NCBI GenBank assembly: GCA_041687695.1
Contig: JAWLBL010000009.1
Location: forward strand, 107,634-171,633
DNA: 64,000 nt
Reading direction: 5' to 3'
From: Myxococcota bacterium
GTDB taxonomy: Bacteria > Myxococcota_A > UBA9042 > PHBI01 > JAWLBL01
The notes under the pieces were generated by a model. That model was not told where the DNA came from. It ran no database searches and worked only from the letters and a program-made list of their open reading frames with translations. How positions within the stretch are numbered: position 1 is the stretch's first letter; every line of letters starts with the position of its first letter. This document shows, piece after piece, positions 2,735 through 42,650 of the stretch. The translations under genes and the position numbers were made by a program.

Positions 2735-3361
2735 ATGGGTGCGCTTTCCGGTAGCGTGACCGCCGCGGCCTATTACGTCGGTGGCGAGCTGCCGTCGGAC
2801 TTCCGCGATCGCTACGTCTCCGCCCTCAACGGGCGGAAGTTCCGCGAGATCGATCTCAACAGCGACGACGACGAGAGCCTCGGCTGGGTCAGCATCAACG
2901 ATCCGTTCGATAACGAGTTCCACCTCGACAAGGTCCTGGTGGGCGACTACCTGATGGCCTCCATCCGGCAGGACACGATCCGCATCCCCGCCGCGGCCTT
3001 CAAGCTGCACCTGCGCAAGGCGATCATCGAGTACTGCAAGGAGACCGGGCGCGAGAAGGTCACCAAGGCCGAGGAGGAGGAGCTGCGCGACACGCTCGAG
3101 AAGCAGCTGCGCAAGCGCGTCCTGCCCTCCATCCGCACCTTCGACATGACCTGGAACATCCAGCGCGGCAAGCTCTGGCTCTGGACGACCAACAAGCGCA
3201 CCAACGAGGTCTTCCAGGAGCTGTTCCAGGACACCTTCGAGCTGCCGCTCATCCCCAAGACGCCGTACGCCCAGCTCGAGCGCATGGATCTGGGCGAGGA
3301 CGTCCTCGACCGCGCCGTGGTCATCGAGCCCGCGGCCCTCGCCCTGCCCCGCCGCCGCTAG
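2735..3361 (+). CDS. RdgC-like recombination-associated protein
   Basis: ESLGWVS...R.D..RIP...LRKRVLPSIR...WLWTT...ELFQDTF pattern resembles the N-half of RdgC; AGGAG RBS. Confidence 0.65.
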   Translation: MGALSGSVTAAAYYVGGELPSDFRDRYVSALNGRKFREIDLNSDDDESLGWVSINDPFDNEFHLDKVLVGDYLMASIRQDTIRIPAAAFKLHLRKAIIEYCKETGREKVTKAEEEELRDTLEKQLRKRVLPSIRTFDMTWNIQRGKLWLWTTNKRTNEVFQELFQDTFELPLIPKTPYAQLERMDLGEDVLDRAVVIEPAALALPRRR

Positions 3362-3370
3362 GAGACGCGC

Positions 3371-3943
3371 ATGGACATCCTCAGCCGCATCAACCATACG
3401 CGCTTCCTCGGCCGCGAGTTCCTGACCTGGCTCTGGTTCCGCTCGGAGCGCCAGGAGGGCCTGTTCAAGCGGGGCCCGGACGCCTTCGTCGAGGTCTGGT
3501 TCGACGCCAAGCTGGTCCTCGAGGCCCAGGGCGACATCAAGGAACAGAACGTCATCAAGTCCGAAAACCCCACCGAGACCGAGGAGGCCCGCGCCTCGCT
3601 GCAGACCGGCAAGCAGGTGAAGGAGGCGCGCCTGCGCATCATCGCCGACCAGAAGCAGTGGACGCTGACCTTCAAGGGCGAGGACTACCAGATCTCGGGC
3701 CTCAAGCTGCCCGCCCTGCTCAGCCAGGACGACGACGAGCAGCTCTTCGAGCGCTTCTACCTGCTCGAGGAGCTCGAGGACATCATCGACGACCTGTTCA
3801 CCGGGTTCGTCACCCTGCGCCTCGACGACGACGCTTGGCGCGCCGAGGTCGACGAGCTGCGCGCGTGGGTCGCCCAGGAGGAGGGCGACGGCGACGACGC
3901 CCCGACGCTGTCCCGCAGCGCGCGCGCCAAGGCCCTGGCCTGA
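3371..3943 (+). CDS. conserved protein, RdgC C-half-like partner
   Basis: FLGREFLTWLWF and EARASLQTGKQVKEARL motifs; 9 nt downstream of the previous gene. Confidence 0.55.
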   Translation: MDILSRINHTRFLGREFLTWLWFRSERQEGLFKRGPDAFVEVWFDAKLVLEAQGDIKEQNVIKSENPTETEEARASLQTGKQVKEARLRIIADQKQWTLTFKGEDYQISGLKLPALLSQDDDEQLFERFYLLEELEDIIDDLFTGFVTLRLDDDAWRAEVDELRAWVAQEEGDGDDAPTLSRSARAKALA

Positions 3944-28440: not shown

Positions 28441-28516
28441 GCCGACATAGCTCAGCCGGTAGAGCAGCTGATTCGTAATCAGCAGGTCCGCGGTTCAAGT
28501 CCGCGTGTCGGCTCCA
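28441..28516 (+). tRNA. tRNA-Thr (CGT); probable prophage attachment site
   Basis: 76 nt cloverleaf: GCCGACA/TGTCGGC acceptor, CTGAT-tCGTaa-ATCAG anticodon arm, GGTTCAAGTCC T arm, encoded CCA. Confidence 0.97.
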
Positions 28517-28544
28517 AAAAGGCCCTGAGAAATCAGGGCCTTTT
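28517..28544. terminator. bidirectional terminator between tRNA and integrase
   Basis: AAAAGGCCCTGA-gaaa-TCAGGGCCTTTT; overlaps the integrase stop codon. Confidence 0.85.
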
Positions 28545-29771
28545 CCGTTTCGAACCGCCGTTACGGCCCTGTTCTGCGCGCTTGGGTGACACGGTGGGTG
28601 ACACGCTCTCGGGCCCGATCTTCGGCAGCTGCGCGCGGGCGTTGACTCCATCCATGAGGCTCGCGAGCCGGCTGTCGGCGACGCCTGCGTAGGCCTGCTC
28701 GGTCGTCGTGACGGACTCGTGGCCCAGGAGGCGCGACACGTCGAAGATGTCGATGCCGGCGGCAAGCCAGAGCACGCCGGCGGTGCGCCGGAGGCCGTGG
28801 GTGTCGACATCGGTCACGGCCTGTCGGAACGGCACGCCCGCCTCCTCGGCCTCTCGGCGAGCGCGCTCGTTCGCTCGAGCGCAGGCCGAATGGACGTCGT
28901 CGCACCAGTTGTCGTGCCGGATGGGCTGGTCAGCGTCGTGCAGGATGTAGCCGTCACGCCCCCAGCGTTCGGCCGCCAGTTCGAGGAACTCCTGCGCCGG
29001 ATTCGAGAGCGGGATCACCCGGACCTTTCGGCCCTTCGAGCGCCAGCCCGGAGTTGCGGGGTCCGTGGCCGGGATCCGCAGAGTGGGCGTGCCGAGGCCG
29101 CGCTGCACCCAGGCCCATCGAGCCGCGACGGCCTCGCCAGCCCGCAGGCCGGTGTGGATGATGAGGCCCGCCCTAACCCTCATCGCCGGAGAGCAGGCGG
29201 CCAAGAACGGCTCGATCTCCTCGGGCTGCAGGAAAGGGCGGAGCTGGACGGGGCCCGGATCGACGTGGACGCCCTCGGTGATGTCGACGGGCATCCAGCC
29301 TTGCCGGATGGACCATCGAACGAGCGCCCTGATGGCCCGCAGGTACTGCGCCTGAGAGCGGACGCTCGCCGGTCGACGGATGGCGGCCTCGACGTGACGC
29401 CTGGTGAGGTGGATGATCGGCCAGTCCGCGCCTGCGGCCGCCACCAGCGACTGAAGCTGTGTCCGGTATGCCCTGGCTGTCGCCGGCGACAGCTCGCGAC
29501 CGCGCTTGGATGTCGACCGGGCGACGAATCGGTCGACCAGGTCCTGCACTAGGACGGGCGGGGGTTCCGGTGCCTCGAGGAGGCCTGCGAGATAGTCGCG
29601 CCAGATCGTCGTGGCGCAGAGCTCTGCGTCCTGCTGGGTGCCGAACCGTGCGCACGTGCGCGAGCTCGCTCGATGGCCACGGAAGTAGCCATCGACACGC
29701 CACCGGTCTCGGGCTCGCTCGTAGGTGATGTGGACGACGTAGATCCCGTCGTCACGGAATGGTCCTGACAC
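28533..29771 (-). CDS. int: tyrosine recombinase / phage integrase
   Basis: TGLRAGE (R), SKGRK (K), HGLRRT (H-x-x-R), LLGHESVTTTEQAY (H...Y). Confidence 0.93.
   Translation of the reverse strand: MSGPFRDDGIYVVHITYERARDRWRVDGYFRGHRASSRTCARFGTQQDAELCATTIWRDYLAGLLEAPEPPPVLVQDLVDRFVARSTSKRGRELSPATARAYRTQLQSLVAAAGADWPIIHLTRRHVEAAIRRPASVRSQAQYLRAIRALVRWSIRQGWMPVDITEGVHVDPGPVQLRPFLQPEEIEPFLAACSPAMRVRAGLIIHTGLRAGEAVAARWAWVQRGLGTPTLRIPATDPATPGWRSKGRKVRVIPLSNPAQEFLELAAERWGRDGYILHDADQPIRHDNWCDDVHSACARANERARREAEEAGVPFRQAVTDVDTHGLRRTAGVLWLAAGIDIFDVSRLLGHESVTTTEQAYAGVADSRLASLMDGVNARAQLPKIGPESVSPTVSPKRAEQGRNGGSKRKRP
28583..28605. repeat. direct repeat, candidate integrase arm-type sites
   Basis: TGGGTGACACG twice at 12-nt period, about 70 nt from the tRNA end. 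Confidence 0.55.
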
Positions 29772-38979: not shown

Positions 38980-39031
38980 AGCATGCGTGACCATGAATCA
39001 CACGTCAAGGCCGAAAGTGATGCATGGTCAC
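38980..39031 (-). promoter_or_regulatory. PL-like promoter with two repressor operators (OL)
   Basis: Minus strand TTGACG-17-CATGCT; operators GTGACCATGAATCAC (38987-39001) and GTGATGCATGGTCAC (39017-39031). Confidence 0.75.
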
Positions 39032-39090
39032 AGGTGCCAGATCGCGGGTCGGGTGGGCTTCTGGTAGGCTCCGGGGTGGAGGTCAGCCCC

Positions 39091-39465
39091 ATGCGCATCT
39101 TGGTTCTCGACGATGAGAAGGTCCGCCACGACACGTTCGCCAGCCGCCTCGCCGGCCATGACGTGACGCACGTCTGGAGCGCGAAGGCGGCGGCGAAGGC
39201 GCTCGACCGTGAGCGGTTCGACCTCGTGTTCCTCGACCACGACCTCGGCGAGAGCGCCGGCAACGGTCAGCAGGTGGCCGACTACATCGCGCGCCGACTC
39301 GACCCCGAGAAGCGCTCCGGCCGGGTCATCGTCCATTCGTGGAACGTCGTGAGGGCGCCGCTGATGGTCGCCACGCTCTGCGGCGCTGGCATCCCCGCGC
39401 GACACGTCATCTTCCCAGGCGCGGCCGATGAGGTGTCGAGGCCTGCCTTCGAGGCGGCGGGCTGA
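39091..39465 (+). CDS. stand-alone receiver-like protein (cyclic-phosphate-processing receiver type)
   Basis: ILVLDD...LDHDLG...G..VA...IVHSWN signature; GGAGG RBS. Confidence 0.75.
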   Translation: MRILVLDDEKVRHDTFASRLAGHDVTHVWSAKAAAKALDRERFDLVFLDHDLGESAGNGQQVADYIARRLDPEKRSGRVIVHSWNVVRAPLMVATLCGAGIPARHVIFPGAADEVSRPAFEAAG

Positions 39466-39508: not shown

Positions 39509-40714
39509 TCACTCTGCCTCTGGCGACCCGCCCGAATCCTTCGGATCGCCCTGATCGTCCGGCGATAGGGGTTCAAGCCAGACTAGAGCGAACTTGCTCG
39601 AACGCACCTGCGTCGTCTCAACAATCTCAACGGTTTCCACCAAGGTGGCCATGAACCAGGACCCAAGGCTCGCGCCTTCAACGGTCGCAAAAGCGTCCTC
39701 GAGCATTCTTCCCGAGTAGCGCTTACCGTCATCAGCCTCGATCTCGTAGGACTTCAACCTGAGGTTGGCGGCAACCAGCCTGGCACGCACCTGATGCTCG
39801 ACCGGATCCTCCTGCACGAAAACCTCGACTGCCGCGAGGGCGATCTGGGCCTGGACGGGACTCATCTCGACAACATCAGCACCTGTGCGAGATGCCCATT
39901 CCAACTTGATGGGCTTTCGACTCGACACGACGGCTCGGAGGAAGTCGCGATAGCGGCTTGCCGCCCAAGGCCGGAGTTCCTCGAGTGCCCCCTTGATAGC
40001 ATCGGTGTCGCCGCCGCAGCGGATGAGGCTTCCGAGGGTCGTGACGGCCTGATGTAGAGGGCTGTCGCCAAACAAGTCGGCCGGTGCCCAAGCCATCAAC
40101 CTGATTCCCAGAGAGCCAGGGAACGTGGTGCTGAACATCAGCTGGGTCTCATCGGAGGCTGGCCGCGGGTGAGCCTTCTTAAGCCTGCGAGGCTTCCGAA
40201 GAACATCGACCGTCGATTGGAAGCGAGTAAGGACGCCCCCAACATCGGCAGCAGGCACCTCAGAACGCCCACCGTGCGCCGTCTCGAAGACCAACTCGAC
40301 GACTTCGCGATTCGACCGAACTGCGCGCTCCCAGATCGCTTCTCCTCGAGGTTCCAATTCGAGGCGCTCGCCCTCTTCTGCGAGCCACTCGTCTGGGATG
40401 GCGGATGCTTTGAGCGGCTCCACTGTCGCGAGTCCGGTCGTCGCCTCGAGCAGAACCTTGCAGACCACCCCATCTTCCGCGGAGACGTAAGCATCTCTCA
40501 GTGTGATGCGCCCTGAGCGAATCGCATTGAGCCGGTCGGTAGAGACTTGTACGTAGAGCCACGTCTCCCAGCCATCATCGTCTTCGTCCGCGGCGCTCGC
40601 GAGCCAGACCTGGCCGGACTTGCTCGTGCAGACGAACAGGCACGGGCGGTCGTAGTAGACGAAGACTTCGCCTAGCTCGAGTGAGCCGAGGACGGTATTC
40701 AGCGGAAGGCTCAC
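39509..40714 (-). CDS. DUF6575-like N-domain protein with C-terminal OB-like region
   Basis: N-terminal LGxLxxxEVFVYYDRPxLFxC...WLYVxVSxxRL; weaker GC3 bias than flanking genes. Confidence 0.65.
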   Translation of the reverse strand: MSLPLNTVLGSLELGEVFVYYDRPCLFVCTSKSGQVWLASAADEDDDGWETWLYVQVSTDRLNAIRSGRITLRDAYVSAEDGVVCKVLLEATTGLATVEPLKASAIPDEWLAEEGERLELEPRGEAIWERAVRSNREVVELVFETAHGGRSEVPAADVGGVLTRFQSTVDVLRKPRRLKKAHPRPASDETQLMFSTTFPGSLGIRLMAWAPADLFGDSPLHQAVTTLGSLIRCGGDTDAIKGALEELRPWAASRYRDFLRAVVSSRKPIKLEWASRTGADVVEMSPVQAQIALAAVEVFVQEDPVEHQVRARLVAANLRLKSYEIEADDGKRYSGRMLEDAFATVEGASLGSWFMATLVETVEIVETTQVRSSKFALVWLEPLSPDDQGDPKDSGGSPEAE

Positions 40715-41082
40715 GAGACCACCTGGAACATCTCCCAGACGTTGTTTTCATCAGGGAGCCACCATGTGTGATGCGAGTCATCGGACCTGGGGGTCGCGAG
40801 CATGCGACCCGGGGCGCCGTCGACCGTCGCCTGCGCCACGCGCTTCTTCCTTGTCAGGCCAGTCATGCGACGGAGGCGTTCCACGTCCTCCCTCGACCTG
40901 TAGACCGAGAGGCCGCAGGCCTCACACATGTCGGCGTACTCCATTTCGGGCTTGCGTTGCCGATGGCTCAAGAAGTCTTTCGCGCGTGGTGATGCCCTGT
41001 CGACCAATCGGTAGACCGTTCCGCTCGGCGCATTGGCCTGGCGTGGAGGACATCCCTTGGGGAAGAGCGGGGACCACGACAT
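40711..41082 (-). CDS. small protein, candidate ART-fold (Tse2/RES-like) toxin
   Basis: FPxxCPP...VYR...DF.S...CGLSV...SHHTWW; GAAAGGA RBS; GTGA overlap with the downstream gene. Confidence 0.6.
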   Translation of the reverse strand: MSWSPLFPKGCPPRQANAPSGTVYRLVDRASPRAKDFLSHRQRKPEMEYADMCEACGLSVYRSREDVERLRRMTGLTRKKRVAQATVDGAPGRMLATPRSDDSHHTWWLPDENNVWEMFQVVS

Positions 41083-41122
41083 GAACGTTCCTTTCGAGCT
41101 ACCAAGACGGATGACGTCCTCC

Positions 41123-41131
41123 ATTGTAACA
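41123..41131 (-). promoter_or_regulatory. extended -10 promoter for the two-gene cassette
   Basis: Minus strand TGTTACAAT about 40 nt upstream of ATG 41082. Confidence 0.6.
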
Positions 41132-41153
41132 GGGTGATGATCACGCGGGAACC

Positions 41154-41747
41154 TCACCTGGCCCTGTACGCCTTCACCGCCACCGCCGCCGCCTCCGTCG
41201 AGACGGCGTAGGTGTCCCGCACGGTCGCCGCGGTGAGCCTGCCCTCGGCCTCGAGTACGAAGAGGCCCTCTGGCGGGACGAGCAGGAACCGGGCGAACGT
41301 GTTGGCCTGCCACTCGCTTGAGGTCGCGTAGTCCCGCGGCGAGATGCGCTCCTCGATGGCGTGGGCCAGCTGGCCGTGCTCGAGCAGCTCGGCGCCGTGG
41401 AGGACGACGTGCGCCAACTCGTGGCAGGCCGAAAAGCGGGCGCGGCCCTCGTCGGCCTGAAGGCGTGACCAGGTGTCGGGGCCGAATAGGATGACAGCCG
41501 TGTCGCCGCGCATGTAGGTCGTCGCCCACACGTCCGAGGGCACGCACTGGCTCCCGCGCGCCCGGACGGGGAGGGGCCGGCCGCCGACGTCGACGGCGAT
41601 CTCGCGCGCGAGGACCTCGCGGGCCGGGAAGGCCTCCCAGGGTGCGATCCCTGGTGCCAAGTCGGCACGCACCCGGCTGGCCAGCTGCGCGAGCCCTGCC
41701 CGGCTCCAGGCCCGGGACGCCCGCACTCCGCTGATTGCTCCCGACAT
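41154..41747 (-). CDS. ImmA/IrrE family metallo-endopeptidase
   Basis: RARFSACHELAHVVLH (HEXXH), EWQANTFARFLLVP, YAVSTEAA. Confidence 0.92.
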   Translation of the reverse strand: MSGAISGVRASRAWSRAGLAQLASRVRADLAPGIAPWEAFPAREVLAREIAVDVGGRPLPVRARGSQCVPSDVWATTYMRGDTAVILFGPDTWSRLQADEGRARFSACHELAHVVLHGAELLEHGQLAHAIEERISPRDYATSSEWQANTFARFLLVPPEGLFVLEAEGRLTAATVRDTYAVSTEAAAVAVKAYRAR

Positions 41748-41842: not shown

Positions 41843-42559
41843 TCACCCGGGTTCCATCACGTCGGGTTCCGTCAGCTTGTCGATGCGGCGACGCAACTCG
41901 ACGGCCTTGGCGATCACCTCCCACTGCTCGTCTCCGATCTGCATGAACTCGCCGCCCTTCTTGAAAGGGGTGGCGTACGGTCCCCGGCGGTAGGGATGGA
42001 AGTGGGCCAGCCGCATCTCAAAGGTGGGTTCATGCCGGGCGACTACCACGAGCTGGTCGTCGAGCATGACCTCTAAGTCGTCGGGACGGAAGATGATGAT
42101 GTCCGCAGGCTTGAAGTCGGTTCCACTGGCAGCCTTCTCGTCGAGTTCCACCGCGAACCATCGCGATGTCGCATCAGGGTGAGTCAGGGCGGCGTGCTCG
42201 ACGACCTTCTTGGTCGGCTTCACCGGTCCACGATCCAAGCGGACAGGGAGCGCGGCGTTGAAGGCGCCCATCGTGTTCAGCCCCCCATCTTCAGCGACGT
42301 CGCGCTCGACAGGGACGACGATCGCAGGTTGGTCTGATGACGGTCGGGCCGCAACAGGTGCGCTTGAGCCGAGCTCCCACCATTCGACTCCCAGGTGAGG
42401 GGCTACGGCTTCGAGGAACCGCAAGGTGGCGTCCATCTTCCCCCGCTCGACCTTGTTGACGTAGCTCGGGGCGATGCCCGCGCGCCGCGCCAACTCGGCC
42501 TGGGACAACTTCAGCCCCTCCCGAAGATCTGCGATGCGTTGGCCGATCGAGTTCTCCAT
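41843..42559 (-). CDS. CI-like phage repressor (XRE HTH plus degenerate S24-like C-domain)
   Basis: IGQRIADLREGLKLSQAELARRAGIAPSYVNKVERG; divergent from the cro-like gene. Confidence 0.85.
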   Translation of the reverse strand: MENSIGQRIADLREGLKLSQAELARRAGIAPSYVNKVERGKMDATLRFLEAVAPHLGVEWWELGSSAPVAARPSSDQPAIVVPVERDVAEDGGLNTMGAFNAALPVRLDRGPVKPTKKVVEHAALTHPDATSRWFAVELDEKAASGTDFKPADIIIFRPDDLEVMLDDQLVVVARHEPTFEMRLAHFHPYRRGPYATPFKKGGEFMQIGDEQWEVIAKAVELRRRIDKLTEPDVMEPG

Positions 42560-42565
42560 GGGCGC

Positions 42566-42650
42566 AGGCTTCGCAGAAGCATCATCGCACGGCAACGATT
42601 GACTCATGCTCACGACAGTCTTGACACCGGCTGTGACCATTGCTCATTCT
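42566..42650. promoter_or_regulatory. OR region: PR and PRM-like promoters with two operators
   Basis: Plus strand TTGACA(42621)-18-CATTCT; minus strand TTGCCG-18-AAGCCT; operators TTGACTCATGCTCAC (42599-42613) and GTGACCATTGCTCAT (42633-42647). Confidence 0.72.

Follow-up and report, generated by a model that had tools for sequence, protein, structure and literature searches.

The cassette and its prophage

The window, by which we mean the whole 64-kb stretch of DNA analysed, carries a two-gene cassette within a prophage of about 44.5 kb that is inserted at a tRNA-Thr gene (Table 1). Both attachment sites are present, the 3′ part of the tRNA gene being repeated 44.5 kb downstream (G000:C9:180592-180661), and the prophage surroundings include integrase, ParB, RusA, helicase, primase, terminase, portal, capsid and sheath genes. 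The terminase and portal are of the lambda type, the tail has a contractile sheath, and an MT-A70 gene is present as well as the ParB gene. From the left promoter region, the order is operator-like repeats, a convergent cREC gene, gene B, gene A, immA, cI, an operator-like site and a cro-like gene. The cREC gene, which lies between OL and gene B, was absent from the preliminary description of this locus, and the true start of the cI-like repressor is probably downstream of 42640.

Table 1. Positions in the window of the cassette and of the neighbouring prophage features
Feature	Position	Strand	Remarks
tRNA-Thr, left attachment site of the prophage	28441..28516	+	
Integrase	28533-29771		
OL-like: operator-like repeats at the leftward promoter	38987..39034	.	
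cREC receiver-domain gene, convergent on the cassette	39091..39465	+	Pfam PF20274, E 6.1e-13
Gene B	39509..40714	-	401 aa
Gene B residues 123-401, linker and C-module (about 135-386)	39509..40348	-	likely effector, PDC-M63B-like
Gene B residues 1-122, DUF6575 domain	40349..40714	-	Y21-D22-x-P24 loop
Gene A	40711..41082	-	123 aa, PD-T4-10A homologue, predicted ART fold, R25/S59/H104, likely antitoxin
Ribosome-binding site (AAGGA, 6 nt 5′ of ATG 41082)	41089..41094	-	sequence
Extended -10 element TGTTACAAT	41123..41131	-	sequence match
ImmA/IrrE-type metallopeptidase	41154..41747	-	Pfam PF06114, E 6.7e-11
cI-like HTH repressor	41843..42640	-	Pfam HTH_3, E 1.6e-11
OR-like: operator-like site and rightward promoter	42615..42650	.	

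The motif GTGACCAT or its complement occurs at 38987, 39024 and 42633, which are three of its six copies within the window, and these sites adjoin promoter-like hexamers (read by eye). Their position makes it plausible that the cassette lies between OL and OR, and the ImmA/IrrE and HTH repressor genes upstream agree with its proposed place behind cI and immA. In lambda, rexAB is found downstream of the repressor gene and before OL. The cassette takes up the same position, but it has its own candidate promoter and is flanked by immA and a convergent cREC gene, and searches of PADLOC, Pfam, NCBIfam and PHROGs gave no match of either gene to RexA or RexB. Relatives of the immA gene are distant (at most 35% identity) and the cassette accompanies none of 80; none of 17 other genomes of the order gave a match at E 1e-10.

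The start of B and the stop of A share a GTGA overlap, as expected of a translationally coupled pair in which A is read before B. An own extended -10 and ribosome-binding site had been proposed for the cassette, and both were found 5′ of gene A; TGTTACAAT is the sole TGnTAnAAT on either strand of the 64-kb window, and a sigma-70 scan that required both hexamers returned no promoter between 38900 and 42900. Directly upstream of the extended -10 stands a perfect palindrome, GTGATCATCAC (41134-41144). Its half-sites are similar to those of the phage operators, which suggests that the cassette promoter may be regulated rather than constitutive. The cassette is more AT-rich than the phage backbone (61.6% GC versus 70.5% for the window from 28.5 to 64 kb) and lower in GC than every one of 339 segments of equal length, although cI is also low (63.3%), so that low GC is not confined to the cassette.

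Gene A has a predicted ADP-ribosyltransferase fold

The VYR, GLSV and SHH motifs of gene A correspond to R25, S59 and H104, which had been likened in their spacing to the R-S-H triad of Tse2-type toxins. In an alignment of 50 homologues, many of them from related cyanobacteria, S59 and H104 are kept in all 50 and R25 in 47, with substitutions in the other three. The protein modelled from this alignment reached a pLDDT of 93.9, compared with 42 from the single sequence. Comparison with 48,161 chains (VIA) gave KptA/Tpt1 as the best neighbour (Z 7.1, rmsd 3.5 Å over 94 residues), followed by TreX (Z 6.0), Scabin (5.9), the RES toxin of a Vibrio toxin-antitoxin pair (5.4), pertussis toxin S1 (5.0), Tse2 (4.9) and Arr (4.8); the matches listed are ART-fold proteins or uncharacterised entries, and each Z taken alone is middling. 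Foldseek likewise ranked Tpt1/KptA and RES proteins first, none of them below E 0.001, and the nearest named Atlas cluster was Arr (0.78, at the level of a lead). Gene A is therefore predicted to adopt an ADP-ribosyltransferase (ART) fold on the strength of a consistent neighbour list, though no single Z is high. The ART-like fold and the triad of the preliminary description thus both held up.

Gene A resembles the small ART-fold proteins (Tpt1/KptA, TreX, Scabin, RES toxins, Tse2, Arr) in fold, in the Arg and Ser at the usual strands and in having its partner modelled over the cleft. It differs from them in that identity is 6-18% with no close match, in the His that replaces Glu and in that its homologue tested in E. 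coli works as an antitoxin. The Glu of R-S-E transferases is absent and His takes the third position in 50/50 aligned sequences; since this Glu is catalytic in R-S-E transferases, catalysis by A is not assured. A PDB sequence search with the A profile gave no meaningful match, a word-index search retrieved two homologues of A and none of B, and longer, fused forms of A were not found by search, which is weak evidence. Two cysteines, C11 (47/50) and C53 (50/50), are conserved, also in the E. coli protein, and could possibly form a disulphide or a metal site.

Gene B joins a DUF6575 domain to a C-terminal module

Residues 3-170 of B match Pfam DUF6575 (PF20215) over the cut-off at E 5.8e-18, which confirms the N-terminal domain named earlier. 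The B family comprises 1447 representatives after clustering at 50% identity (E 0.001 or better). We aligned 140 of the best 150 homologues, leaving out ten with atypical lengths or split matches. D22 is kept in 138 of the 140, and the sole invariant residues of B, Q166 and S201 (140/140), lie in the C-module. This module (135-386) aligns with nine standalone proteins of 300-325 aa from the window's phylum (hhalign P 99.3%, E 4.6e-20), and PDB searches with profiles of B and of the standalone C-module gave no meaningful match; an OB-like barrel had been proposed for the C-terminus of B.

Behind an A gene, DUF6575 is also found fused to DUF7226 and, judged by eye, to an ImmA-like peptidase, a PLD-helicase in a restriction-type operon and an HU-like domain. 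Fusions to alternative tails lie at L056:5983-7803, L058:5974-9618, L103, L092, L002 and L071. In L044, L045, L047, L053, L087, L102, L111 and L116, which represent many lineages, B ends a few residues past DUF6575. P0059, a candidate fusion of A with B, was rejected because by eye it is a duplication of DUF6575. Locus L017:44-1866 has no A gene; there, a small MqsR-like gene precedes a protein that begins with a zinc finger, is weakly DUF6575-like in its central part and resembles the C-module at its end.

The cassette is a variant of PD-T4-10

PD-T4-10 is a validated anti-phage toxin-antitoxin pair of E. coli that protects against T-even phages (PMC9519451). According to the discovery paper, its B protein is toxic and fully neutralised by A, A could not be deleted, and deletion of B abolished resistance to T4 (PMC9519451). 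Neither protein is given a predicted function in that paper (PMC9519451; Vassallo et al. 2022).

Consistent with the no or weak hit that had been expected of PADLOC, A matches PD-T4-10_A weakly (E 5.5e-4) and B matches both PD-T4-10_B (residues 16-119, E 4.2e-5) and PDC-M63B (residues 135-378, E 3.4e-6) weakly. A primer published with the discovery led us to an E. coli copy of PD-T4-10, which is situated within a P2-like prophage and whose genes share an ATGA overlap. The alignment of the A-family profile to E. coli PD-T4-10A spans 115 columns (hhalign P 94.7%, E 6e-8; profile score 35.2 bits), and R, S and H coincide in it. For the B family, the profile matches E. coli PD-T4-10B over DUF6575 only (E. 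coli residues 13-126, P 95.9%), with no alignment past residue 122 of B. The C-module profile did not match E. coli PD-T4-10B, and the profile-profile comparison of the C-module with the E. coli-type tail, a sequence test on a 7-sequence alignment, gave P 0.2%. The GSFG and YxSPG motifs found in the two C-terminal types were suspected to be remotely alike, but the comparisons gave no support for this and the idea was rejected.

The cassette shares with PD-T4-10 a small gene overlapping a larger one downstream, homology along the whole of A that includes R, S and H, an N-terminal DUF6575 domain in B, and a prophage location. It differs in that the C-terminal two thirds of B are another module, in an identity of about 20-25%, and in that A is modelled here as an ART fold whereas the paper predicts no function for either protein. 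By sequence, the cassette is thus a PD-T4-10 variant with a different effector tail that fails full-length membership, because the C-terminal region of B is unlike that of PD-T4-10B. The earlier statement that this is not a named system does not stand, as both genes match PD-T4-10 in the right order. Nor does the proposal that the small protein is the toxin and the large one the sensor or antitoxin fit the E. coli pair, where it is the large protein that is toxic and the small one that acts as its antitoxin (PMC9519451); by analogy, these roles were probably reversed. A literature search retrieved no later mechanistic study of PD-T4-10 and, with subscription journals, database wikis and bioRxiv supplements outside its reach, no paper that assigns a fold or mechanism to PD-T4-10A.

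The predicted ART fold and the conserved R-S-H residues speak for another arrangement, in which A is an ART/NADase effector held off by DUF6575 with Asp22 as a plug, or the two form a two-way lock, and the C-module is a sensor or second effector. An ART toxin that is harmless alone has a precedent in CmdT, which was non-toxic when expressed by itself (PMC9519451), and the joining of DUF6575 to unrelated tails is also in keeping with A as effector. The E. coli data argue against it: A was not the toxic component, rescued B and could not be deleted, and the B-deletion construct was viable (PMC9519451). The primers for that deletion, read by eye, leave about ten codons of B, so A without DUF6575 is tolerated in E. 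coli. We regard A as effector as unlikely.

The C-terminal domain of E. coli PD-T4-10B occurs alone, without A, in six loci. These standalone tail genes of about 210 aa (L068, L069, L070, L119, L120:2504-3145 and L121:2474-3112) sit next to the ogr gene of a P2-like prophage or within a cassette-like array of Vibrio; the two that were scanned matched no Pfam family, and the standalone tail is a candidate single-gene defence protein. Their occurrence bears on a further reading, in which DUF6575 is toxic in every version, A neutralises it and the C-terminal parts are sensors or passengers, since DUF6575 is the sole part that our B shares with the toxic E. coli B and the E. coli-type tail is found by itself. 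This reading has to contend with the invariant residues of B, Q166 and S201, which are both in the C-module, and with the loci described below in which DUF6575 persists without A; we consider it quite unlikely.

DUF6575 is modelled in the active-site cleft of A

The model of A in complex with residues 1-125 of B scored 0.86, compared with 0.21 for the best control, with contacts agreeing by at least 94% between runs and a partner pLDDT of at least 89. Of 157 solved complexes, 116 reach the mark used for this score, as do 2 of 215 mismatched pairs; for alignments made here, both counts are approximate. The model supports binding of DUF6575 by A. At the modelled interface, which includes residues 26, 57-59 and 104 of A, Y21 and D22 of B contact S59. 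Position 22 of B is Asp or Glu in all loci with an intact A and is Gly only in L113 and L114, in both of which A is frameshifted.

Tsi2 blocks the toxin Tse2 by occluding its active site (PMC6099711). The modelled geometry of Asp22 and Ser59 fits equally a residue that accepts ADP-ribose from a transferase and a plug as in Tsi2/Tse2. The placement of Asp22 in the cleft, like Tsi2 on Tse2 (PMC6099711), thus also counts in favour of A as effector.

Linkage, gene loss and selection

For the linkage survey we used an A profile built from three seed sequences, without position data. Among 47 loci fetched by B, an intact A lies directly upstream in 42, a remnant or cut A in three and none in two. 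Conversely, DUF6575 lies directly downstream of A in 29 of 33 metagenome loci fetched by A, the remainder being two contig edges and two broken A genes. The homologues of the two genes are therefore linked, as the preliminary description had supposed. Across the 80 loci, every B with an intact C-module has an intact A (35/35), and none of the 15 loci in which A is broken, cut or absent retains an intact C-module B, although some of these 15 are cut at a contig edge or are near-duplicates, and related loci do not count as independent. That an intact C-module B never occurs without an intact A fits B as the toxic partner.

DUF6575 with an intact Asp22 does occur in three lineages that lack a working A (L054, L066 and L104-107), which argues against DUF6575 as the toxin. 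An alternative genetic code for L104-107 was rejected, as these loci have a TAG in A and a frameshift in B. The viral contig L066 encodes DUF6575 (3131-3613, +) without an A gene; the YYDGP loop is intact and the protein has a hydrophobic helix at its C-terminus. It could be a decoy that binds A-type proteins.

Thirteen of the 80 loci have an intact A and DUF6575 only. At two shared sites such pairs arose by loss of the C-module, in L047 through an internal deletion of about 690 bp. Four pairs of loci that are both short, in which the C-module was presumably lost before each split, gave dN/dS values of 0.12-0.40 for A and 0.12-0.28 for DUF6575, similar to those between full-length loci. A lock without its effector should decay, yet the short pairs are under purifying selection, which suggests that A or DUF6575 may also act independently. 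The maintenance of these pairs favours DUF6575 as toxin, and their origin by deletion at shared sites together with purifying selection in all four short-short comparisons favours A as effector. So does the observation that, two contig-edge cases aside, every intact A was accompanied by DUF6575 residues 1-80 at least. Two findings point away from A as effector: a single comparison of a full with a short locus gave a DUF6575 dN/dS of 2.06, on 9 changes, and in L057 and L099, which are one lineage, A is intact while DUF6575 is frameshifted near residue 80. L110 was rejected as a further intact A without a partner, as its A is frameshifted near the start.

The genomic neighbourhood bears on whether A and B serve defence at all. 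Of 28 chosen loci, scanned without a background control, seven have a restriction or recombinase gene close by; the other 21 have none adjacent, and most homologous loci lie among housekeeping genes. Scans of viral contigs returned two loci by B, both without A, and none by A, and a complete A-B pair was not found in the viral collections. The 21 of 28 loci and the viral scans would suit an addiction module that stabilises the prophage and provides no phage defence in this host, as would the inactivity of PDC-M63AB, to which the C-module is related (see below), in one test (10.1101/2024.12.20.629700). The defence role that had been assigned to the cassette is supported by its homology to PD-T4-10, and we judge a pure addiction module very unlikely.

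The C-module is shared with PDC-M63

Models of PDC-M63B match five B homologues at E 1.6e-9 to 8e-15. The gene 5′ of the nine standalone C-module proteins is DUF6932/PDC-M63A in all four that were scanned, looks alike by eye in three more and is different in two; PADLOC models missed the four standalone C-module proteins scanned. The arrangement of a DUF6932 gene followed by a standalone C-module protein, with a 4-nt overlap in most (L008-L013, L018), is common in the window's phylum. The DUF6932 genes carry a GSF...DxD motif, which we take to be a nucleotidyltransferase signature. A PDB sequence search with one DUF6932 protein gave no meaningful match, so the nucleotidyltransferase label follows from the motif.

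The cassette thus resembles PDC-M63AB, a PADLOC candidate system, in that residues 135-386 of B match PDC-M63B and the standalone proteins behind DUF6932. No DUF6932 or PDC-M63A match lies upstream of B in the cassette; in its stead is the ART-fold gene A, and DUF6575 replaces the N-terminal helical extension. A further difference is that PDC-M63AB has no demonstrated defence activity; it gave no defence in one native-host test (10.1101/2024.12.20.629700).

In MntA-HepT, an enzyme antitoxin modifies its toxin (PMC8138530). The cassette has in common with this system an enzyme-fold antitoxin encoded upstream of its toxin (PMC8138530). MntA is a nucleotidyltransferase that adenylylates tyrosine, whereas ADP-ribosylation of an aspartate, as might occur in the cassette, would be new chemistry. 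The same effector behind a nucleotidyltransferase-like gene in PDC-M63 and the parallel with MntA-HepT make covalent control of B plausible by analogy. In the strongest form of this idea, A would be an enzyme that serves as antitoxin by ADP-ribosylating Asp22 of DUF6575, and A and DUF6575 together a portable NAD+-dependent switch on at least five tails. Writer enzyme and acceptor domain would then have been swapped together around a fixed effector, in place of the nucleotidyltransferase-like switch of PDC-M63. We put this forward tentatively.

A proposed lock-plus-effector mechanism

The reading that we favour, with moderate confidence, is that B is a lock-plus-effector toxin, that A is an ART-fold antitoxin holding the lock by binding and possibly by ADP-ribosylation of Asp22, and that infection releases B. 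The cassette would be cargo of the prophage, a toxin-antitoxin module that is related to PD-T4-10 and serves defence. B would be the toxic protein, in which an N-terminal DUF6575 lock is fused to a swappable C-terminal effector module. As antitoxin, A would hold DUF6575 in its own active-site cleft with Asp22 of B beside Ser59, and B would be off for as long as A stays bound or Asp22 bears an ADP-ribose that A has attached. Infection by another phage would remove the lock, whether because A is no longer supplied, because NAD+ is lost or because the mark is taken off, and the freed B would stop the infected lysogen from growing. Homology, fold, linkage, domain swapping and the modelled interface were computed here, and polarity and anti-phage activity come from the E. 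coli homologue. Which part of B is toxic and whether it is covalently modified are inferences, and the trigger is conjecture. Covalent modification and plain binding seem to us about equally probable.

The toxicity of B is carried over by analogy from E. coli PD-T4-10B across a domain swap, as the C-module is not detectably related to the E. coli toxin tail. Against the lock-plus-effector reading stands the E. coli-type tail that occurs alone without A and is not obviously toxic by itself.

New here are the predicted fold of the antitoxin, the interface modelled at residue level (Asp22 of B against Ser59 of A) and the domain map. PD-T4-10, whose proteins had no predicted functions in the discovery paper, thereby gains a testable mechanism. 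ART folds in bacterial conflict systems are known as toxins. A search of titles and abstract starts found no case of an ART-fold antitoxin, and an ART fold serving as antitoxin would invert the toxin-only rule. If A does ADP-ribosylate Asp22, the cassette would represent a class of toxin-antitoxin systems in which ADP-ribosylation silences the toxin, and provide a mechanism for PD-T4-10. As the B family is large and its matches in the defence databases are weak, many of its loci have probably been overlooked.
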